NCBI GenBank assembly: GCA_045655805.1
Contig: JAZOPZ010000015.1
Location: 41,704 to 105,703, forward strand
Source of the DNA: Christensenellaceae bacterium
Lineage (GTDB): Bacteria > Bacillota > Clostridia > Christensenellales > Borkfalkiaceae
DNA: 64,000 nt
Direction: 5' to 3'
Below the pieces are notes generated by a model. That model did not search any database, was not told the DNA's origin, and saw only the letters and a list, made by a program, of their open reading frames with translations. Numbering within the stretch: position 1 is the first letter of the stretch; every line of letters begins with the position of its first letter. Positions 3,031-55,652 of the stretch are shown one piece after another. A program made the translations under genes and the position numbers.

Positions 3031-3780
3031 ATGCACGAATTATTTGGTACAAAGCATTTGATTTTGATAGCGATTTCTTTTGCTCTTATAGTGGGGCTTT
3101 ATTTTTTGGCAAGAAGATTTAAGTTTTCCACCGTTGCTAAAACGCTTTTTTGCGTTGGTATTGTTTCAGAGATAGTTAAAATTTTTTACTACATAGTGGC
3201 TAACGAGGCTACGCACGGTGGCGTTTTGCCAAAGTCCGATTTGCCTTTTCACCTTTGCTCTATTCAAATAATTTTTATATCAGTAGTAGTGCTTGCTAAA
3301 AGCGACGCGTTGAAAAGGTTTATAATTTCATTTATGATACCTAGTTGTTTATTCGGTGGTATTGCGGCGATTTTAATCGCTACTGAATCTGCAAGGAATT
3401 CAACCATAATTACTATACAATACTTTTTATATCACGTTGCGATTACCGTGTTTGCTCTTTACGTATTGCTTGGCAAGGAATATAATCTTGAAATTAAAGA
3501 TTACTTTAACTGCCTTAAATTCTTGCTCGTTATAATGTTCTTTGCGATATATATTAACAGTATGCTTTCAGATGGCGTTCACAACACCAACTTTATGTAC
3601 GTGGTTGCGCCACCTCAAAAGAATTTGCCGTACCTTAACAATAATAACGGTTGGCTTTCTTACATTTTGCGTTACGCCTTACTTATACTCGTTTGTGTAT
3701 CCCTTTGTTATATCAAACCGATTGTTGGTGCTGTAAAAGGTGTTATTCAAAATAAAAAGTCCTCAAAAGTTGAAGAATAA
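3031..3780 (+). CDS. Integral membrane protein, YwaF/TIGR02206-like
   Basis: Multi-TM ORF. The LPFHLCSIQ motif resembles the YwaF family. TTTACA-17-TATAAT promoter at 2979-3007. Confidence 0.55.
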   Translation: MHELFGTKHLILIAISFALIVGLYFLARRFKFSTVAKTLFCVGIVSEIVKIFYYIVANEATHGGVLPKSDLPFHLCSIQIIFISVVVLAKSDALKRFIISFMIPSCLFGGIAAILIATESARNSTIITIQYFLYHVAITVFALYVLLGKEYNLEIKDYFNCLKFLLVIMFFAIYINSMLSDGVHNTNFMYVVAPPQKNLPYLNNNNGWLSYILRYALLILVCVSLCYIKPIVGAVKGVIQNKKSSKVEE

Positions 3781-3793
3781 ATATGGCATAAGT

Positions 3794-3822
3794 AAAAGCG
3801 CGCCCTTACGGGGCGCTTTTTT
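3794..3822 (+). terminator. Intrinsic terminator
   Basis: GC-rich hairpin aaaagcgcgccc-ttac-ggggcgc followed by TTTTTT. Confidence 0.75.
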
Positions 3823-3967
3823 GTTTGCTGTATTTGTGCATTTTTGTAAAATTTGACGAAAAAATTGTTTTTCATCAAAATTTTGCCTCGATTTTATAGG
3901 GCAAATTGCACAAAGTACTTGAAACTTGTCTTCTAAAGATGTATAATTACACCATAAGGAGATTGTT

Positions 3968-5017
3968 ATGGATTTTGAATTAAATTCCGTTTTGAGCGGT
4001 ATTAAGGAAAAAACGGGGATTGAAGTTGCCGTTTACACCGATGGGTTAAGGTTTATTGCTAGTACCGACGGCGTAGGTGAAATTTTGTTGCCTCAAAAAA
4101 ATGATTTTGACGGAGTGTTGCAAGACGCGTCAACCGGCAATACCTATTTTAAGGTTAGGTATAAAAATTCGGATATGACGGGCGTTATTAAGGGTGTTAC
4201 TAGAATTGAAAAAAATTACGCATCTTTGATTTCTGAACTTATCGAAGCCTCTACTGGTAGAGATTTGGAACTTTCGCAAGCGGAATATTTTAAGGCGATT
4301 TTAGCAGGTGAGTGTAACCGTCAGCAAGTTCAAAAGTATGAGAAAAATTATTCAATCCCTCAAAAGCCTTGTTTCGTTTTGGCTGTTCAAGGGCAAGGAA
4401 TTAAAAAACAGGATTTGATTAACGTCCTTACTACTTTTGGCGCTGGCGAACACGACTACGCCGTTGTTATGGAAGAGGGGCTTTGTGCTTTCGTTAAGTT
4501 CGTTGATGAAAATATCGTCGATTATCAGTCATCTACTGATTTTGCAGGTTTTTTAATGCAGTCGGTTAAAGAAGAGACGGGCGTTACCGTGTCTATCGGC
4601 GTTGGTTCTACAGTAAAAGATTTTGCAGAAGTTTCCGTTTCGTACGCTCAAGCCGTTACCACCGTTAGGATGGCGGGCATAATGGGTAGCAAGGGACAAG
4701 TCCATTCTTATAAAGAACACGTTCTTTTGACTATGCTTAAAGATTTGTCGAAGGCTAAACTCGGCGAGTATTTAGAGACGCTTTTAGACGACGATGCGCG
4801 TGAAATTTTTAACGACACTGAAATGACTAATACGGCTGAAGAATTCCTTGAAAACAGCCTTAACGTGAGCGAGACTTCTAGAAAGTTGTATCTTCACAGA
4901 AACACGCTTATGTATCGTTTGGATAAAATTGAGCGAGAAACGGGGCTTAATATTCGCAAGTTTTCGGACGCAGTTATTTTCCGTTTGATTACTATACTTT
5001 TAAAACTTACAAAATGA
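3968..5017 (+). CDS. PucR/CdaR-family transcriptional regulator
   Basis: C-terminal PucR-type HTH (SETSRKLYLHRNTLMYRLDKIERETGLN). GGAG RBS. Confidence 0.7.
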   Translation: MDFELNSVLSGIKEKTGIEVAVYTDGLRFIASTDGVGEILLPQKNDFDGVLQDASTGNTYFKVRYKNSDMTGVIKGVTRIEKNYASLISELIEASTGRDLELSQAEYFKAILAGECNRQQVQKYEKNYSIPQKPCFVLAVQGQGIKKQDLINVLTTFGAGEHDYAVVMEEGLCAFVKFVDENIVDYQSSTDFAGFLMQSVKEETGVTVSIGVGSTVKDFAEVSVSYAQAVTTVRMAGIMGSKGQVHSYKEHVLLTMLKDLSKAKLGEYLETLLDDDAREIFNDTEMTNTAEEFLENSLNVSETSRKLYLHRNTLMYRLDKIERETGLNIRKFSDAVIFRLITILLKLTK

Positions 5018-14125: not shown

Positions 14126-14210
14126 ACTTAAAACTTAAACTTAAAAAGGGTAAGAATATTAAAAATATTTGTAAATATAGCGTTTAATTTGCCGTTTGTA
14201 ATAAACTCAA

Positions 14211-14318
14211 TATATCTTTGGGGCAGGGTGTAAATCCCGACCGGCAGTTATAGTCTGCGAGCGTTAGCACGATTCGGTGTAATTCCGAGACCGACGGTAT
14301 AGTCCGGATGAGAAAAGT
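14211..14318 (+). promoter_or_regulatory. FMN riboswitch (RFN element) aptamer
   Basis: tctttGGGGCAGGGTGtAAATCCCgACCGGCaGT...GCGAGC...GATTCGGTGtAATTCCGaGaCCGACgGTATAGTCcGGATGagAgAAg matches the RFN consensus block by block. It lies upstream of a riboflavin-transporter gene. Confidence 0.9.
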
Positions 14319-14321
14319 TTT

Positions 14322-14345
14322 TTGCGCCCTTTGGCGCAATTTTTT
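14322..14345 (+). terminator. Riboswitch expression-platform terminator
   Basis: TTGCGCC-cttt-GGCGCAA followed by TTTTTT, ending 1 nt before the GGAGG RBS of ribU. Confidence 0.8.
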
Positions 14346-25176: not shown

Positions 25177-25336
25177 TTGACAAAAGTTATTGTCAATGAT
25201 AAAATTACCGTGTAATTGAATAACCGTAGACAGTCGGTGTCTAACGTAAAGGGCAATAGCCCACCGACCGAGGTAATCAGTATTTAGTTTTTCGTAATTA
25301 ACTCTTGATTGCTTTGGCGTGGTCAAGAGTTTTTTC
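25177..25336 (+). promoter_or_regulatory. rplJ promoter and L10-leader-like attenuator
   Basis: TTGACA-17-TAAAAT at 25177-25205. Structured leader (ccgtagacagtcggtg...ccaccgaccgagg) ending in terminator AACTCTTGA-N14-TCAAGAGTT plus TTTTT (25300-25336). The position matches the Firmicute L10 leader. Family assignment needs a covariance-model check. Confidence 0.55.
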
Positions 25337-25399
25337 GTTATATTCGATAGATACGGTTTGCCGAAAGGCTTTTCACAAAAATATAGGAGGTAACGACAA

Positions 25400-49275: not shown

Positions 49276-50570
49276 ATGAAAATTTATCCAGTAACGGATT
49301 TCGGCGCAATTCCAAACGGCGACGGTTTGCAAACTGAATATTTTCAAAAGGCAATAGACACTGCTTTTTTAGCGGGTGGTGGTGAAGTTGTAGTTCCTGC
49401 AGGTAGTTATATAATGGTGGGATTAGACTTCGTTCAAACATAGTATTTCGCGTAAAATCGGGCGCTACTATCTTTGGTACTAGAGACGTTTCAGAGTATT
49501 GGTTCTATCTTAACGATACCATTGAACCGTACCCTATGGAGTTTGTTACAGACAAAAACTACGTGCGTCCACAATTTAGAAATAACGATTTTGACTTCTT
49601 AAAAGAAGGTTCGCGTTGGAATAACGCGTTGATTAGGATTGATTTTGCGCAAAACGTTTCGCTTATTGGGGAAGAAGGCGCTGTTATAGACGGTCAAGAC
49701 CCCTACGATCCTGTTAACGAAGAGTTTTATCGTGGACCACACGGCGTTACGATAGCATATTCTAAAAACGTAACTTGCAAAGGTTTTACTTTGCAAAACA
49801 CGGGGAATTGGGCTTTTAATATTAGATATTCGCAAAACGCCAAATTTGAAGATATAACGGTAAACGGCGGGCACGACGGAGTGCATATGACTACTTGCGA
49901 AAATATAATTATTAAAAACTGTAATTTTTACACGGGTGACGACTGCGTTGCCGGTATGGGCAATCTTAACGTTTACGTTAGCGATTGTATAATGAATACT
50001 GCTTGTTCGGCATTTAGGTTCGGTGGCACAAATTTATATGCCGAAAGGTGTAAGGTGTATGGTCCTGCTGAATATTTTTTCCGTGGAGGGCTGTCGCTAG
50101 AGGATAAAATAAAAGGTGGACCTGCAAAAGTTGGCAGAAATAACACTCTTTCTATTTTTACCTATTACGCTGATAAAACTGCGCCTATTCCATATTTACC
50201 GGGTAATATACAAATAGTTGATTTCGAGGCTAAAAACGTGGATAGGTTTTTGCACTACAACTTTTCGGGTAACGAAGTTTGGCAACTGGCTGTTCCGCTT
50301 AAATCTATACGGTTTGAAAACGTTAAGGCTGAAAACGTTGCGTTGCCACTTACTGCTTACGGTGATAAACAGGTTAAAATCGACCTTGAACTTAAAAATG
50401 TAGACGTTGATTTTGGAGTGGAAAATATACCGTTTATTCAAGGCGCGCATTTTGACAAGTTGACGCTAGAAAACGTAAAAATTAAAGGTAAAATCAGTTC
50501 GCTCGTTAAGTCTTGGACGGACGGAGGTAAAATGACGTTTGATAACGTTACGGGTTATATACCTGAATAA
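49276..50570 (+). pseudogene. Glycoside hydrolase family 28 (polygalacturonase-like) gene interrupted by one frameshift
   Basis: 55-codon N-terminal fragment (MKIYPVTDFGAIPNGDGLQTEYFQKAIDTAFLAGGGEVVVPAGSY..) stops at 49441. The next frame, open from 49407, continues GGIRLRSNIVF... into ORF 49536..50570, which has parallel beta-helix repeats (GHDGVHM, TGDDCVA). Frames differ by 1 nt near 49410-49425. Confidence 0.65.
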
Positions 50571-50634
50571 AAAGTTATCGTTACGGATGAAGAATTTATT
50601 TGCAATCCTATATAATTGGTGTTATATAATGCTT

Positions 50635-50676: not shown

Positions 50677-51048
50677 AAAAAGGCGAGTTTGTCGCTCTTC
50701 CCATAGGGAATTGCGACAACTAAATAAATCCTTACGGATTTGTGATAATTTGAAAAATTTTCTTGCAAAGCAAGATATTTTTCAAAGTGATATTGCCTAC
50801 GGCAGTTATATTCGACTTGCGTCGAGCTAAGGATTTGTTTAATATAACTTTGGCGTAGTCAAAATATAACTGCTTGTAAATCAAGCAATATCACTTTTAG
50901 CCACAAGGCTAAAAATATAACTAATATGTTTCAATTTTTTGTGGACAAGAAAAGCACACTACATTTCACTTTTAGTGAAGTATAGTGTGCTACACTTTTG
51001 TTATGGATAAATAATCCCTAAGCGAAGAGCCCTTTTGCTCGCCTTTTT
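50677..51048 (+). ncRNA. Hairpin-dense non-coding element, copy A (342-nt conserved core 50688-51029 enclosed by AAAAA-GGCGAG...CTCGCC-TTTTT); candidate structured RNA or MITE-like element
   Basis: Reverse-complement twin at 53896-54268. At least 9 local hairpins and two 9-11-bp long-range pairings (AGTTATATT/AATATAACT; AAAGTGATATT/AATATCACTTT). The ncRNA type and the strand are tentative; the strand rests on G-U pairs that exist only in this sense. Confidence 0.6.
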
Positions 51049-51060
51049 CGTTTTCAAATA

Positions 51061-51867
51061 TTAGTCGTGGTAGCCTTTCTTTCTTAAAAGGTCTAAAACG
51101 ACGTCAGGGTTATTGCAGGTGATAAGTTCAGCACCTACTTCAATCGCACGGTCAACGCCACCTTCGTCTTTTACACTTGCTCCTGCCCAAGGTTGAACGC
51201 CTTTGGCAGTCATTTTATCGCATACGTCTTTATCTGGAATATTATACTTGTCCCAAGTGTCCGTAAACATACAAGAGCAATAAGCATATTCGTAAGGGTT
51301 TCTGGTTGTATTACTCATACAGTTTGACGGATAGTACACGTGTTGACGATATTTTTTGCCGTATTTATTATTAATATATTCGTTAAGTCTGCCACTCCAA
51401 GAGTTGATAACTACTCTATCGGTAAAGCCATAGTCGTCAACAATTTTTAATACTCTATCGCAAACGCTATAAGCAAGTTCTTCTCTGCCGTCGGTAGGGT
51501 ATTCTTTAAGTTCAATATCGACGGTCATTTCAGGCAACGTTTTAACGTAGTCCATAAATTCAATAAAGGTGGGGATTTTTTCGCCCTTAAATTCTTCTCC
51601 CTTATGAATACCTGCGTCAAGCACTTTAAGTTCACTTAAAAACTTTTCACAAACTTTGCCCTTGCCGTTTGTGGTACGGTCAACGGTGGCATCGTGAATA
51701 ATTACTAATTCGTTATCAAGTGTTACTCTAACATCAATTTCTAATTGGTCAACACCTATTTCAACAGCCTTTTTAAATGCAATCATAGTATTTTCAGGAT
51801 ACTTTGAACACCAACCACGGTGTGCTGCTACGTAAATGTTCTTTTTAGATTGTTTCCAATAATTCAT
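51061..51867 (-). CDS. Glycerophosphodiester phosphodiesterase
   Basis: AHRGWCSKYPENT and EIDVRVTLDNELVIIHD motifs of the GDPD family. Confidence 0.88.
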   Translation of the reverse strand: MNYWKQSKKNIYVAAHRGWCSKYPENTMIAFKKAVEIGVDQLEIDVRVTLDNELVIIHDATVDRTTNGKGKVCEKFLSELKVLDAGIHKGEEFKGEKIPTFIEFMDYVKTLPEMTVDIELKEYPTDGREELAYSVCDRVLKIVDDYGFTDRVVINSWSGRLNEYINNKYGKKYRQHVYYPSNCMSNTTRNPYEYAYCSCMFTDTWDKYNIPDKDVCDKMTAKGVQPWAGASVKDEGGVDRAIEVGAELITCNNPDVVLDLLRKKGYHD

Positions 51868-51943
51868 AATACTGCCCCCTTGTATCGTGTTGATTTAGAT
51901 AATTTTAGCATAATTATTTTGAAAATTCAATGCACAACTAAAA

Positions 51944-52481
51944 TTATGTGTTTAGAATTTCGATTTGACAAGTAGCCATTGCCGAAAGAGCATTTTGATG
52001 ACTTTCTTTGCTAACGCCGGCGCAACCTTTAGTGTCTACTTTAACGGTTACTTCTGGTAAGGTCGCCTTAATTAACATTGCGTTTGAGATTACGCAAATA
52101 TCCGTACAAAGTCCTAATAAAGTAACCGTTTCGATAGGCTCAAGGTTGTTCGCTTTTTTCAAAATTTCTGCAAGTTCAGTCGAGCCAAAGGTCGGTTTGT
52201 CGATCACCATGCATTTTGAAGCGTAGGGGGGCAAGTGATTTATCTATTTGCCAACCGTCAGTACCTTTTATGCAATGTGGTACAGGTAATTTTTTGCCTT
52301 CTTGTGTTTTAAGGTAGTCTTCTTGGTGGGTATCTCTTGTAAAAATTACGATTTCGCCACTATCAAAAGACTGCTTTACGCAATCTGCGACGTGCGGTAC
52401 GATAGCAACGGCGTCAGCGCTACCGAGCGCACCGTCGATAAAGTCCTTTTGCATGTCAACTACTATTAAAAAGTTTTGCAT
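51944..52481 (-). pseudogene. Isochorismatase/nicotinamidase-family cysteine hydrolase, split by a +1 insertion in a C6 (plus-strand G6) tract
   Basis: ORFs 52176..52481 (MQNFLIVVDMQKDF...) and 51944..52234 (..VIDKPTFGSTEL...GLCTDICV..) are the two halves of one family member. Removing one base from the G6 run at 52226-52231 fuses them as ..KSLAPYASKCMVIDKP... Confidence 0.75.
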
Positions 52482-52490
52482 AAATTTCTC

Positions 52491-52970
52491 CTATTTCGTA
52501 AGGTCTGAATATTCAGCGTTTAAAAAGTTTTTAAGGTCGTTAGGGGGTAGTATGATTTGTTCACCACGCATACCTGCACTAACATAAATTTTGTCCCATA
52601 AAATAGCCGTTTCGTCTATAAAGGTAGGAAATTTTTTCTTCATGCCGATAGGGGAGCAACCCCCTCTTATATAGCCCGTTAACGGCAAAAGTTCTTTTAC
52701 GGCAATTAGTTCAACTCGCTTGTCCTTGCTAGCCACAGCGCATTTTTTAAGGTCTAATTCTTCCTTGACGGGTATGACGTAAACCCTAGGTTCGCCCTTG
52801 TCGTTTTTGGCAACTAGTGTTTTAAAAATAATTTCACAATCAACGCCTAAAACTTTGGCTACGTGTACGCCCGAAAGATCGCTTTCGTCTACTTCGTAAC
52901 AAGCAGTCTCGTAGGGGATTTTATTAGTTTCTAAAGCGCGCATCGCGTTGGTTTTAAGTAGTTTCGCCAT
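52491..52970 (-). CDS. ybaK: Cys-tRNA(Pro)/Cys-tRNA(Cys) deacylase YbaK/EbsC
   Basis: 159 aa. The TNAMRALE..IPYE N-terminus and GGCSPIG motif are typical of YbaK. Confidence 0.85.
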   Translation of the reverse strand: MAKLLKTNAMRALETNKIPYETACYEVDESDLSGVHVAKVLGVDCEIIFKTLVAKNDKGEPRVYVIPVKEELDLKKCAVASKDKRVELIAVKELLPLTGYIRGGCSPIGMKKKFPTFIDETAILWDKIYVSAGMRGEQIILPPNDLKNFLNAEYSDLTK

Positions 52971-53092
52971 ATTTTTATTGTAGCACTTTCAAAATAAAAT
53001 TACAAGACGTATTGACATATTTTATAATATGTTTTACAATTGATTTGCCAAAAGAAGGGCTTAATTTATTTTGTTACGTGACGAGGTTTGTT

Positions 53093-53878
53093 ATGAAAAA
53101 AATTGCGTTTGGAGTTTATCCACAAGGCAAAAGGATGTGTGTGACTTTTTCGTATGACGACGGAAAGTTGAACGATATTAGGCTTTGTGAACTTTTCAAA
53201 AAATACGGTATGAAAGCGACTTTTAACTTAAATTCTTCAAATATCGGTAGAGATACTTATATTTCTCAAGATGACGTTAAAAAAATGGTCGCGGACGGTT
53301 TTGAAGTAGCCGTTCACAGTGTTTTTCATCCACTTTTGGAAACGATGCCTGACCAAATTATTGTTAATGAGATTTTAGAAGACAAGCGCGCTCTTGAAAA
53401 AATGACTGGTAATATTATTACGGGTATGGCGTATCCTTTTGGCACTTACGATAAAAGGGTAACTGATATTGCAAAGCGTTGTGGTATAAAATATTCTCGC
53501 ACAACGAAGTATGACGGTTATAGTTTTTCTACCGATTTTATTGAGTGGAATTCAACTTGTCATCATAGGGATATGGCTAAATTTTTACCTTTGCCAGAGC
53601 ATTGGTGGACAAACTTGTTCTACGTTTGGGGGCACTCTTACGAATTTAACACCGAAGAACTTTGGCAAGAGTTTGAAAACAACCTTAAGCAAATTGCGTT
53701 TAGTGACAAATATTGGTACGCAACTAACGGTGAAATTTGCGAATATATAACGGCGCAAAAATCTTTAATATTCTCCGCGGATTGCGATATGGTTTATAAT
53801 CCAACGGCAATAGACGTATGTATTTTGGTTGATGACATTTGCGTTGAAGTAAAAGCCGGGCAGACGGTTTCATTTTAA
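53093..53878 (+). CDS. Polysaccharide deacetylase (NodB-homology) family protein
   Basis: TFSYDDG motif 1, HSVFH motif 2. The ATG at 53093 inside ORF 53012..53878 follows GACGAGG. Confidence 0.8.
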   Translation: MKKIAFGVYPQGKRMCVTFSYDDGKLNDIRLCELFKKYGMKATFNLNSSNIGRDTYISQDDVKKMVADGFEVAVHSVFHPLLETMPDQIIVNEILEDKRALEKMTGNIITGMAYPFGTYDKRVTDIAKRCGIKYSRTTKYDGYSFSTDFIEWNSTCHHRDMAKFLPLPEHWWTNLFYVWGHSYEFNTEELWQEFENNLKQIAFSDKYWYATNGEICEYITAQKSLIFSADCDMVYNPTAIDVCILVDDICVEVKAGQTVSF

Positions 53879-53895
53879 ACATTATATAATATAAT

Positions 53896-54268
53896 AAAAA
53901 AGAACGGTAAGCCTCTCTTCGCTTAGGAATTTTTTATCCATAACAAAAGTGTAGCACACTATACTTCACTAAAAGTGAAATGTAGTGTGCTTTTCTTGTC
54001 CACAAAAAATTGAAACATATTAGTGATATTTTTAGCCTTGTGGCTAAAAGTGATATGCAAAACAAGTTTTGCGTGATATTTTGGCTAACGCCAAAGTTAT
54101 ATTAAATAAATCCTTAACTTGCCAAGGCAAATATAACTGCCGTAGGCAATATCACTTTGAAAAATATCTTGCTTTGCAAGAAAATTTTTCAAATTATCAC
54201 AAATCCGTAAGGATTTATTTAGTTGTCGCAATTCCCTACGGGAAGAGCGACAAACGCCGTTCTTTTTT
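53896..54268 (-). ncRNA. Hairpin-dense non-coding element, copy B (340-nt core 53915-54254 enclosed by AAAAAA-GAACGG...CCGTTC-TTTTTT); inverted twin of copy A
   Basis: The reverse complement aligns with copy A end to end. It is near-identical outside the segment 54057-54130, where three hairpins have different sequences. Confidence 0.6.
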
Positions 54269-54290
54269 ATTGTGTTTTAAAATTAAAGAC

Positions 54291-54327
54291 AAAAAAATCC
54301 CACTCAAGAAGAGTGGGATAATATTTT
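54291..54327 (-). terminator. Intrinsic terminator of the PH-domain gene
   Basis: Minus-strand ATCCCACTC-ttctt-GAGTGGGAT followed by TTTTTTT. Confidence 0.85.
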
Positions 54328-54347
54328 ACGCGTAATTAAAATAAATA

Positions 54348-54836
54348 TTAGGAACCAAATACGTGGCTAACCTTGTTTGAATCGCTATCCATAACGCCTT
54401 CAAGATACTTCTTTAACTTTTCAGGTTTTTTAATACCAACGGTACCAACATCAAGTTCATCGCCACCAAAATTATCGATAACGATATCGCCGTAGCCAAA
54501 AAGTCTAGCACGGAAGGTTTTAAAGATGCTTACTGCTTTAACGCCAAAGAAAGCGGTTTGTTTTTCCCATCTACGGAAAACGCCTCTCTTTTGAACGATT
54601 CTATCATCATAGAATTCAATGGCAACACAGCCGTTGCTGATAAGTTTACAAATAAGTTTTAATAACCAAAGTGCACCAAGAGCAATAGGTACAATGGTTG
54701 CTACGGTTGCAAGCATACCAGTTAAGCCAAGTGCGCCAGGAAGCACGAGACCAACGATAACAAGTGCTGCAATAAGAGCGAGTTTCCATAATTTGATTAC
54801 TTTCCAAGCGCTCATTTTAACTACGTAATTAGGCAT
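54348..54836 (-). CDS. Bacterial PH-domain (bPH_2 / YdbT-like, membrane-flanked) protein
   Basis: Two TM helices followed by a short beta-rich domain. The ATG at 54836 is 7 nt after AAGGAG (ORF track extends to 54857). TTGACA-17-TATAAT promoter at about 54868-54896 on the minus strand. Confidence 0.65.
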   Translation of the reverse strand: MPNYVVKMSAWKVIKLWKLALIAALVIVGLVLPGALGLTGMLATVATIVPIALGALWLLKLICKLISNGCVAIEFYDDRIVQKRGVFRRWEKQTAFFGVKAVSIFKTFRARLFGYGDIVIDNFGGDELDVGTVGIKKPEKLKKYLEGVMDSDSNKVSHVFGS

Positions 54837-55191: not shown

Positions 55192-55330
55192 GCGTCGGCG
55201 AAATTTACTAAAAACAGTTCTCTAAACTGTTTTTCTAGCGTAAATTTACCCAAGGGTTCTGCGTCCTGCAGTTAAATAAAAAAACCACCTCTGTGGTTTT
55301 AGACAAACTGTTGGTGTTGGTAACAGGACT
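55192..55330 (-). repeat. Tandem duplication unit 1 (139 bp), ending in a 19-nt copy of the tRNA-Leu 3' end (55312-55330)
   Basis: About 90% identical to 55371-55510. Differences fall mostly in hairpin loops. Confidence 0.85.
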
Positions 55331-55370
55331 ACGTGCAAAACTTCGTTTTCACTTGCCCCGCCTCCTTGGT

Positions 55371-55510
55371 GCGTCGGCGAAATTTACTAAAAACAGTTCC
55401 CCAAACTGTTTTTCTTAACGCAAATTTACCCAAGGGTTCTGCGTCCTGTGCTAAAATAAAAAAACCACCCTAGTGGTTTTAGACAAACTGTTGGTGTTGG
55501 TAACAGGACT
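55371..55510 (-). repeat. Tandem duplication unit 2 (140 bp), overlapping the genuine 3' end of tRNA-Leu and its terminator
   Basis: Contains the minus-strand terminator AAAACCAC-taggg-GTGGTTTTTTT and a long AAAAACAGTT/AACTGTTTTT hairpin. Confidence 0.85.
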
Positions 55511-55574
55511 TGAACCTGCATGGTTGCCCATAGGAGTCTGAGACCTACGCGTCTGCCAATTCCGCCATACCAAC
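55492..55574 (-). tRNA. tRNA-Leu (anticodon CAG), CCA encoded
   Basis: Manual fold: acceptor GTTGGTA/TACCAAC, D-arm GCGG-AATTGGCAGA-CGCG, anticodon arm TAGGT-CTCAGAC-TCCTA, long variable arm, T-arm ACAGG-TTCAAGT-CCTGT, A73, CCA. Confidence 0.9.
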
Positions 55575-55578
55575 AAAT

Positions 55579-55652
55579 TGGAGCAGGTGAAGGGAATCGA
55601 ACCCTCGAATACTGCTTGGGAAGCAGTCATTTTACCACTAAATTACACCTGC
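55579..55652 (-). tRNA. tRNA-Gly (anticodon CCC), CCA encoded
   Basis: Manual fold: acceptor GCAGGTG/CACCTGC, D-arm ATTT-AGTGGTA-AAAT, anticodon arm ACTGC-TTCCCAA-GCAGT, T-arm GAGGG-TTCGATT-CCCTT, U73, CCA. Confidence 0.92.

Follow-up and report, generated by a model that had tools for sequence, protein, structure and literature searches.

Small repeats such as BOX, RUP and SPRITE of Streptococcus pneumoniae, Correia and ERIC are AT-rich, non-coding and multi-copy, and they combine terminal inverted repeats that pair in transcripts with a short target duplication and an enrichment at the 3′ ends of convergent genes (PMC3049150, PMC10969869). Here we describe a repeat that resembles them in these respects, its target duplication being a putative one of 2 nt, and that also resembles boxB in its modular build with a variable number of modules. 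It occurs as two inverted copies, A and B, in a 64,000-nt stretch of contig JAZOPZ010000015.1 from a Christensenellaceae bacterium (assembly GCA_045655805.1). This whole stretch is hereafter called the window, and its coordinates are used unless another locus is named. The repeat differs from those families in lying inside the loop of an existing terminator and not merely nearby, in having internal 8-9-mers that are more conserved than its ends, and in carrying a putative relaxase recognition site. We consider that the repeats are probably non-coding, non-autonomous elements of ~341 bp, which resemble MITEs (miniature transposable elements with inverted repeats), carry an orphan MOBV-type origin of transfer (oriT), and have inserted into the loops of Rho-independent terminators.

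One part of the element is related to Gut-1 (RF01706), a candidate RNA known from human gut metagenomes only and scored as a likely RNA by Weinberg et al. in 2010 (PMC2864571). Both come from uncultured gut organisms, and window positions 50717-50798 align to the whole 77-nt model. However, Gut-1 was described as a free-standing 77-nt non-coding RNA candidate, whereas here it is one module of a dyad-symmetric 340-430-bp element that lies in terminator loops and has an oriT-like site. Like the orphan oriT elements (pOriT, iOriT and oriT mimics), the repeat has an oriT-like site without relaxase or mating genes, would have to be transferred by a helper relaxase and conjugation machinery, and is unrelated to its presumed helpers outside the oriT (PMC11389934, bioRxiv 10.64898/2026.01.13.699239, PMC4652767). 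Such oriT-only elements, called “hitchers”, are by now acknowledged to be common, both as plasmids and as genomic islands (PMC11389934; bioRxiv 10.64898/2026.01.13.699239). The known ones are plasmids or kilobase-scale islands with cargo and att sites, while the window element is a cargo-free, multi-copy repeat of 341 bp. With the MOBV oriT or RS_A sites of pE33L5, pBM02, pBMB0228 (Mob02281; PMC4902927) and Tn4451-like elements, it shares nested inverted repeats and the core GTATAGTGTGCTAYACTTT, but its site has no adjacent mob gene, lies within a chromosomal repeat, and has inner hairpin arms of different sequence.

Insertion targeted to palindromes has precedents in the REP-specific insertion sequence (IS) elements (PMC1525189) and, as cited in PMC2853133, in the IS30-type IS1630, which duplicates inverted repeats. 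As far as these accounts go, the target there, as in the window, is a palindromic or terminator-like hairpin and not a fixed sequence, although those elements are autonomous IS elements with transposase genes; IS1630 is described as duplicating an inverted repeat of 19-26 bp in full, whereas the window element splits the hairpin, with just 2 nt repeated. To our knowledge, none of these precedents splits a terminator in the manner of the window element, and we know of no parent IS for it.

Insertion into terminator loops

The two copies and the terminator halves enclosing them are located as follows.

50691-51032, + strand: copy A of the element, 342 nt (sense strand +), delimited by alignment with copy B and 18 homologues and by the empty site in L273/L274
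53911-54251, − strand: copy B of the element, 341 nt (sense strand −), delimited by the A/B alignment and comparison with L271/L272
50677-50687, + strand: A-tract and 5′ terminator half-stem AAAAAGGCGAG, split by copy A; the terminator is undivided in L273
50688-50690, + strand: left loop remnant TTT, compared with the 6-nt loop of L273; TT at 50689-50690 is repeated at 51033-51034
51033-51048, + strand: right loop remnant TTTTG, 3′ terminator half and T-tract, CTCGCCTTTTT, from the L273 comparison and folding
53896-53910, + strand: A-tract, half-stem GAACGG and TAA (left part of the loop) of the deacetylase terminator that copy B interrupts, from L270-L272
54252-54268, + strand: right loop remnant AAACG, half-stem CCGTTC and T-tract, from the L271/L272 comparison and folding

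A preliminary description, made from the letters of the window, had noticed the inverted repeat as a conserved core of about 340 nt in which no open reading frame (ORF) was credible. Both copies were indeed found where it had placed them, at 342 and 341 nt, and the element is small and non-coding, with only short ORFs. The copies are 92% identical in the overall alignment. The repeat search of the window gave two main arm pairs, 50888-51029/53915-54056 (142 nt) and 50687-50819/54123-54255 (133 nt), each 98% identical, with a 32-nt arm between them. Within the 64-kb window there are no further copies, also by an 8-mer scan.

How do the two sites look without the element? Orthologous contigs were reached via homologues of the deacetylase beside copy B and members of its 90% cluster. 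The metagenome contigs L271 and L272, which are 98.4-98.9% identical to window 52118-54687, lack copy B. In its place, downstream of the stop codon, they have an intact bidirectional terminator, AAAAAGAACGG-TAAACG-CCGTTCTTTTTT, with a 6-nt loop (in its wider context, ...ataatAAAAAGAACGG-TAAACG-CCGTTCTTTTTTattgtg...), where the window has 341 extra bases. The BLAST match blocks cover window 52118-53910 and 54243-54687; the match of the window to these contigs runs to GGTAA on the left side and resumes at AAACG on the right side, with 2 nt in common (AA, or TT in the sense of the element). The more distant contig L270 (84-92% identity) also lacks copy B and has the intact terminator AAAAAGAACGG-TGATTG-CCGTTCTTTTT, and L263 and L264 (73-79%) have a different terminator at the same spot, with ordinary terminators at both junctions and the gene order kept. 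At the site of copy A, L273 and L274 (~80%) have convergent GDPD and GH28 genes with the undivided terminator AAAAAAGGCGAG-TGTTTG-CTCGCCTTTTT between them, and the same stem flanks copy A. The comparison with L273 fits a 6-nt loop and a TT duplication at this site as well. There is a 2-nt ambiguity at the junction of each inserted segment. The overlap is seen at the two sites with known empty alleles, one of them through a relative only ~80% identical, and microhomology or a recombination core could also account for it. A target-site duplication of ~8 bp, comprising stem and loop, was considered and dropped for the window copies, because the empty allele shows a 2-nt overlap only.

The empty alleles have the features of an intrinsic terminator: a GC-rich stem, a short loop, a T-tract and an A-tract, and a position at a gene 3′ end. 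Among the matches listed, all window-type copies are enclosed by a copy-specific complementary stem with an A-tract before it and a T-tract after it, and these enclosing stems look like a bidirectional intrinsic terminator cut in two. In the wider family, L137, L215, L223 and L156 are likewise enclosed by copy-specific halves (AAAGAGCACCC...GGGTGCTCTTTT, AAAAGGGAAGCCC...GGGCTTCCCTTT and AAAAAACAACACCC...GGGTGTTGTTTTTT). A strict search for an A-tract and 6-mer followed by the complementary 6-mer and a T-tract succeeded for 16 of 84 elements, as compared to 0.75 in mismatched-flank controls; this figure comes from the strict test only, since relaxed searches are confounded by shared internal sequence. 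The split stems of both copies are predicted to re-pair on both strands with p ≥ 0.94. In a set of 27 copies, at least one flank is a gene 3′ end in every case, usually 5-50 nt from the stop codon, and nine sites are convergent and none divergent, with both orientations of the element represented at tandem sites.

The restriction to gene 3′ ends, often between convergent genes, would also suit a host-domesticated, REP/BIME-like palindrome array with the function of an mRNA stabiliser or of a terminator reinforced in both directions, spread by gene conversion and not by transposition. The equal folding of the two strands and the mosaic combination of hairpin modules, which suggests recombination between copies (see below), point the same way. 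However, the element sits exactly within a terminator that was there before it and already looked functional, its boundaries are discrete and its ends are terminal inverted repeats, and a terminator role explains neither the oriT module nor the 8-9-mers, so we regard domestication as improbable. A MITE-like element, one of the explanations that had been offered at the outset, is essentially right: the element is small and non-coding, has terminal inverted repeats, is polymorphic for presence and absence at an intact target in near-identical strains, occurs in multiple copies per genome, and breaks contigs. The preliminary description was thus sound in its observation, but it did not notice that the terminators are split, that the element is related to Gut-1, or that it contains a module like a MOBV oriT.

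A different insert, of 52 nt, lies in the same deacetylase terminator loop, between AAAAGAACGG and CTGGTCTTTT, in a relative with ~79% deacetylase identity (L265 1637-1688 and L266 1146-1197). It was rejected as a remnant of the element, as the 8-mer scan found zero similarity. Its presence suggests that such loops may attract insertions in general.

Anatomy, strand symmetry and the Gut-1-like segment

From its 5′ end to its 3′ end, copy A contains the following parts, together with the oriT-like module described further below.

50691-50717, + strand: 5′ terminal hairpin P1, GTCGCTCTTCCC-ata-GGGAATTGCGAC, read from the sequence
50717-50798, + strand: Gut-1-like segment, two hairpins with GUGAUAWU after each, from cmscan with RF01706
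50743-50922, + strand: dyad-symmetric array of 8-9-mers and hairpins, from a motif scan and conserved in 16 homologues
50743, 50786 and 50804, + strand: left half of the array, GTGATAAT, AGTGATATT and AGTTATATT, respectively, from the motif scan
50841, 50863 and 50914 (AATATAACT) and 50887 (AATATCACT), + strand: right half of the array, from the motif scan
51015-51032, + strand: 3′ terminal inverted repeat TCCCTAAGCGAAGAGCCC, from the A/B and homologue alignments; its last 3-4 nt differ between the copies

The left arm and loop of P1, CTCTTCCCATAGGGA, recur in inverted form at the 3′ end as TCCCTAAGCGAAGAG (within 51015-51032), and 14 of 16 positions pair. In the homologue alignment, two subfamily 5′ ends (GTCGCTCTTCCC... 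and GCCGAGTCCC...) co-vary with their 3′ ends (...GCGAAGAG and ...GGAACTGCC). The array consists of three left and four right motifs, with the consensus AGTKATATT on the left and AATATMACT on the right, and with short hairpins between them; in copy A it is followed by the conserved block TTTTGTGGAYAAGAAAAG, a long nested hairpin, GTATAGTGTGCTACACTTTTG, and finally the 3′ inverted repeat. The hairpin sequences between the 8-9-mers drift with their pairing kept. In 126 elements, the unique spacers between successive 8-mers number 182 in one half and 125 in the other (307 in total), and a nested stem of at least 4 bp is present in 74% and 70% of them, respectively, as compared to 12% of shuffles. 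The length differences among homologues are hairpin-sized indels. The hairpin modules occur in mosaic combinations, and both P1 end types are seen with both main alleles of P7, which indicates exchange between lineages. Within copy A, AAATAAATCCTTA (50721-50736, the 5′ arm of P2 and the residues upstream of it) is complementary to TAAGGATTTRTTT (50826-50842, the centre of the element); this pairing would be an alternative that competes with the P2 hairpin, and both segments are nearly invariant in the family.

All of the hairpins that had been listed for the element exist. For the covariation analysis, we used a hand-curated set of six of them (P2, P4, P5, P6, P8 and P9) in 16 full-length homologues. 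The six are supported: 95.8% of the cells are paired, both sides have changed in 11 of 43 hairpin pairs, none of 500 shuffles scored as high, and slid controls were 29-47% paired. The differences between copies A and B are likewise concentrated in three stems and are compensatory: TCGAC-ttgc-GTCGA in A corresponds to TTGCC-tt-GGCAA in B, GCTTG-taaat-CAAGC to GCAAAAC-ttg-TTTTGC, and the outermost stem GGCGAG/CTCGCC to GAACGG/CCGTTC. The two long-range pairings of 9-11 bp proposed earlier, AAAGTGATATT/AATATCACTTT and AGTTATATT/AATATAACT, were not confirmed, as they show no covariation and not one both-sided change in the 16 sequences. Their single variable position (K on the left, M on the right) changes independently, giving G·A in 5-7 of the 16 copies. 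Therefore, the 8-9-mers are conserved as sequences in both orientations and not as pairing partners. An arrangement of the helices between forward and reverse motifs as a ladder of four-way junctions was also rejected, since it has no covariation support.

Copy A is predicted to fold with a minimum free energy (MFE) of -138.7 kcal/mol, as compared to -74.4 ± 4.8 for dinucleotide shuffles (z = -13.3), and the opposite strand is nearly as extreme (z = -12.3). The G-U pairs that had been taken to indicate a transcribed sense give no such signal over the family: the mean MFE difference between sense and antisense is 0.08 kcal/mol, the sense strand is lower in 11 of 20 copies, and G-U accounts for 8.6% and 8.0% of the predicted pairs on the two strands. 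The element has no sense strand: its strands fold equivalently. The idea of RNAs transcribed towards the enclosed genes is thus unsupported, given this equality and the occurrence of the element in either orientation relative to neighbouring genes. Some loops were at one point read as UNCG tetraloops, which would imply an RNA sense, and this reading proved wrong on re-inspection.

Rfam gave zero matches to the element at gathering thresholds, but the element is not unmatched. Both copies align to the full 77-nt Gut-1 model below its gathering score of 50 (38.5 bits, E = 3.6e-06), and that score is exceeded in the full-length homologues L233a/b (54.9 bits) and in the wider-family members L133 (54.3 bits) and L129 (52.0 bits). 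The model matches either strand of family members. In the cmscan alignment, the Gut-1 layout of two hairpins with a GUGA(A/U)AU stretch after each is present in the window as AAAUCC-uuac-GGAUUU GUGAUAAU ... hairpin ... AGUGAUAUU. The low score of the window copies is due to a 38-nt hairpin that stands where Gut-1 has its short second one. The window copies are divergent relatives of the Gut-1 member sequences, as judged from this alignment. Other weak Rfam matches at E <= 10 (snoRNA, miRNA and RT-17) were judged to be due to chance. A class C group II intron was rejected: even at E <= 10 the Rfam intron families gave no match, the element lacks an ORF, and with 341 nt it is too short.

Could the copies then be paralogues of a large structured non-coding RNA gene, an extended Gut-1 acting in trans, whose closing stem and U-tract are its own terminator? 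The strong covariation of the stems, the full-length Gut-1 match with homologues above the gathering threshold, the published scoring of Gut-1 as a likely RNA (PMC2864571), and the high conservation of the 8-9-mers across orders would all fit such a gene. However, the two strands are equal in energy and G-U content, the conserved motif stands in both orientations without covariation, no conserved promoter lies upstream, and the flanks are unrelated between copies. Moreover, the element takes either orientation relative to its neighbours, always inside a host terminator, genomes that are 98.5% identical differ by its presence or absence, and it contains a putative oriT-like site that would act at the DNA level. 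Considering these points, an RNA gene is quite unlikely in our estimation. Gut-1, an orphan Rfam motif since 2010, appears instead to be a module of a mobile DNA element and not a free-standing RNA gene.

The oriT-like module and a proposed mode of action

The module that resembles a relaxase site lies between the array and the 3′ end.

50953-51000, + strand: MOBV (Mob/Pre)-type oriT- or RS_A-like module, from plasmid similarity and shared architecture
within 50953-51000, + strand: nested inverted repeats of the module, GCACACTA..TAGTGTGC and ATTTCACT-ttt-AGTGAAGT
50980-50989 and 50990-50999, + strand: conserved nick region, GTATAGTGTG followed by CTACACTTTT
53946-53965 in + coordinates, − strand: nick region of the oriT-like module of copy B

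The module has the layout of a MOBV oriT or RS_A, a nick-region core with nested inverted repeats, and the nick position is presumably that of pMV158. When the 3′ part of copy A (50925-51035) was compared with plasmids, 20 weak matches of 26 nt at 92% identity were found, all to plasmids of 3-11 kb from the Bacillus cereus group or Lactococcus, of which 18 are typed as mobilizable. In pE33L5, which matches at 24 of 26 nt, and in pBM02, the distance from the site to the downstream mobV relaxase gene is 100 and 55 nt, respectively, and site and gene have the same orientation; both plasmids share the outer repeat, GCACAC...GTGTGC, and the core with the module, and their inner hairpin differs in sequence. 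BLAST of a wider-family element gave 35-nt plasmid matches at 97-100% identity. A second subfamily carries a different MOBV site, identical at 35 of 35 nt to a Kurthia plasmid and matching at 97-100% over 35 nt a site 62 nt upstream of the Mob/Pre gene (“plasmid recombination protein”) of an IncHI2 plasmid, where TnpW and a large serine recombinase follow. We take this gene layout to be that of a Tn4451-like mobilisable transposon. A strict nick-region pattern had 32 matches in 883 kb (the loci and the window), all within 330 nt of an 8-mer array: 20 downstream of it, 11 upstream, and one on the other strand.

No homologues of MobV, TnpZ or the Tn4451-type serine recombinase were found in the window and about 150 loci (~1 Mb); the oriT is therefore an orphan. 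The loci show no recurrent protein family beside the elements, and window 28-64 kb contains only housekeeping genes (ribosomal proteins, ClpB, EF-Ts and similar). No relaxase or transposase is nearby. The Tn4451-like transposon has ends that do not resemble those of the element.

Hairpin-rich non-coding regions, the single-strand origins (sso), accompany the oriT in plasmids of the pMV158 family. With the close similarity of the oriT module to small plasmids and a Tn4451-like element, this would be compatible with chance-integrated, immobile and decayed fragments of small MOBV rolling-circle plasmids or mobilisable transposons that retain an oriT and a region like a single-strand origin. We give little credence to this origin, as the boundaries of the element are discrete and recur, with terminal inverted repeats, in over 20 copies from different species, every copy lies in a terminator loop, there are multiple copies per genome and recent insertion polymorphism, the flanks hold no remnants of plasmid genes, and the MOBV plasmids examined do not have the 8-mer array. 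The whole element had zero matches in the plasmid collection and one weak match only in the phage collection.

On the preferred reading, a MITE-like element with an orphan oriT, we propose the following course of events.

Insertion: An enzyme acting in trans would insert the element at a WW dinucleotide of a terminator loop, leaving a 2-nt duplication; a staggered cut of 2 bp, or a recombination core of that length, would be compatible with the overlap. In the window, copy A splits the bidirectional GH28/GDPD terminator and copy B the deacetylase terminator, and these were two separate events.

Accommodation in the terminator: According to the folding predictions, the termini would pair and the interior would collapse into local hairpins on either strand, thereby rejoining the terminator halves for transcripts from either side. 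Such rejoining on both strands would make the insertion cost the host little, so that it is tolerated.

Mobilisation: With a MOBV relaxase and conjugation machinery present in the same cell, the element might be nicked at its orphan oriT and the DNA linked to it mobilised. Besides mobilising DNA, Mob proteins of the MOBV family recombine two directly oriented core oriTs of 24 bp (PMC4902927), and a MOBV relaxase could also recombine directly repeated copies. An oriT with a helper relaxase would give the element a route between cells.

Our confidence in mobile insertion into terminator loops is high, that in a functional oriT is moderate, and that in any specific insertion enzyme is low. Several observations weigh against the proposed account. 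The 3′-terminal 3-5 nt vary among copies (...GAGCCC versus ...GAGAGGC), which is unusual for tips recognised by a transposase, and the ~1 Mb of loci yielded no transposase or recombinase and no autonomous parent whose ends match. The “2-bp duplication” comes from two sites only, one of them via a relative ~80% identical, and longer imperfect direct repeats of the 5′ flank are seen in L211, L192 and L233b. The re-formation of the closing stem is an equilibrium folding prediction, neither kinetic nor experimental. The argument for a functional oriT is drawn from a 26-35-nt similarity and a shared architecture, and the strict nick motif is absent from 93 of 125 arrays. The 8-9-mer array, which is the most conserved part across subfamilies that differ in their ends and oriT subtype, has no role in the account. 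The G·T pairs of the spacers are unevenly distributed between the strands, with 7 on the top and 28 on the bottom strand in the left half and 26 and 6, respectively, in the right half. Finally, the Rfam curators judged Gut-1 to be an RNA (PMC2864571).

If the account holds, the loop of an intrinsic terminator is a very precise insertion niche, and the architecture suggests how a selfish element could stay harmless there. It would extend the idea of a minimal hitcher, with only an oriT, from plasmids and islands to a 341-bp repeat. Were the oriT functional, the abundant but uncultured gut Clostridia (Christensenellaceae, Oscillospiraceae and Acutalibacteraceae) may hold many chromosomal transfer origins, which bears on gene flow in the gut. 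A wider proposal, which we think doubtful and offer tentatively, is that these “oriT-MITEs” form a superfamily of cargo-free chromosomal repeats of gut Clostridia, with the array as a new cis-acting module and with many chromosomal transfer origins. In that case, the array might act as a signal for priming or as a single-strand origin, or might be bound by a so far undescribed recombinase that targets hairpin loops, and the element might move as single-stranded DNA by the HUH-type chemistry of a relaxase instead of a classical transposase. A resident MOBV relaxase and conjugative element could then mobilise chromosomal segments and excise genes between direct copies, such as those of L233.

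The family and the genes between the two copies

Further copies in relatives, which the preliminary description had suggested looking for, are numerous. A genome scan with one genome per species and the pattern AGTGATATT-N(5-25)-AGTKATATT-N(20-50)-ATATAAC found at least 119 loci; among the matches listed, all are metagenome-assembled genomes (MAGs) of gut Clostridia, from Christensenellaceae, Acutalibacteraceae, Oscillospiraceae, Ruminococcus, Faecousia and others. At least about 26 of the loci listed are full-length, window-type homologues, mostly from Christensenellaceae, and the remaining ones share the central array only. Several MAGs have 2-3 loci, and among the matches listed at least 8 copies are truncated by contig ends, as is usual for dispersed repeats in assemblies. 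In practice, the repeats break MAG assemblies and can be mistaken for non-coding RNA genes or cassette boundaries.

In L233, two direct copies 2.1 kb apart (1545-1909 and 3643-3980), with identical closing stems CCACCGC/GCGGTGG, flank one gene for a 566-aa surface protein with a Listeria-Bacteroides repeat domain, an arrangement on which excision by Mob might act. The weak match from the phage collection, L001 (MT835476.1 32592-35702, “Bacteriophage sp.”, human faeces), is a wider-family hairpin array, followed by a T-box leader and, by eye, an apparent serine acetyltransferase gene; this scaffold looks bacterial and not phage. Two pattern scans of viral contigs gave only a chance coding match and unrelated tandem repeats. 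A metagenome scan with the GDPD protein found 22 homologues (50-74% identity in the best segment), none with synteny or the element.

The genes enclosed by the two copies had been named correctly, as Pfam confirms.

51061-53878, both strands: block of enclosed genes, from Pfam; relatives without the repeats share its order
51061-51867, − strand: GDPD, from Pfam
51944-52481, − strand: isochorismatase, frameshifted and thus split, from Pfam
52491-52970, − strand: YbaK-type tRNA_edit protein, from Pfam
53093-53878, + strand: polysaccharide deacetylase, from Pfam

Their reading as accessory cargo was not borne out. Relatives without the repeats keep the order GH28-isochorismatase-ybaK-deacetylase-bPH2 in the same orientation; in L263, which has neither the repeats nor GDPD, GH28 adjoins the isochorismatase, and the gene at the ybaK position, the deacetylase and bPH2 follow. 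From this gene order, the enclosed genes are resident chromosome, ordinary neighbours and not cargo. In L263, only an 84-nt terminator region (3094-3178) separates GH28 and the isochorismatase, and GDPD varies independently of the repeats, being present in the window, L270 and L273 and absent from L263.

The inverted copies had also been considered as arms for recombination, by which the enclosed cassette of four genes and 2.8 kb would be inverted or mobilised. In favour of such arms, the copies are 98-100% identical in blocks, so that homologous recombination could invert the segment, each contains an RS_A/oriT-like site of the kind that Mob proteins can recombine (PMC4902927), and two direct copies flank a single gene in L233. 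On the other hand, the isochorismatase, ybaK and deacetylase genes occupy the same place and orientation between GH28 and bPH2 in relatives that have ordinary terminators and no repeats, near-identical strains keep the genes but lack copy B, and L273 has GDPD but lacks copy A. Furthermore, recombination by Mob was demonstrated for sites in the same orientation, whereas the window copies are inverted (PMC4902927), and no recombinase is nearby in the window and loci. We therefore regard an invertible or mobile cassette as highly improbable. Each of the two repeats was inserted separately, and it is incidental that they are inverted.

Two of the genes around the copies are disrupted in the window. 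The frameshift of the isochorismatase (52224-52230) is one extra G in a G-run, GTAGGGGGGC, as compared to GTATGGGGC in L271 and GTAAGGGGC in L270; the gene is intact (178 aa) in L270 and L263, and the frameshift is either a strain-specific pseudogene or an assembly error in a homopolymer. The polygalacturonase-like GH28 gene (49276-50615) is disrupted relative to its 446-aa relatives, as judged by tblastn: residues 1-32 lie in one frame and 48-446 in another, and a premature TAA (50568-50570) comes 15 codons ahead of the ancestral stop.

Next to the terminator that took copy B, a second intact bidirectional terminator, ATCCCACTC-aagaa-GAGTGGGAT (54297-54319), serves bPH_2 and is kept in all relatives. 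Elsewhere in the window, Rfam matches above gathering are an FMN riboswitch (14210-14323, 103 bits) and a ribosomal protein L10 leader (25206-25345, 57.7 bits), both ordinary housekeeping cis-regulators. A tRNA-Gly(CCC)/tRNA-Leu(CAG) pair lies at 55492-55652 on the − strand, and just 3′ of the tRNA-Leu(CAG) gene, overlapping its 3′ end, is a tandem duplication (55192-55510) of ~100-nt units that are 89% identical and 180 nt apart, with a terminator-like hairpin, AAAAACAGTT..AACTGTTTTT.

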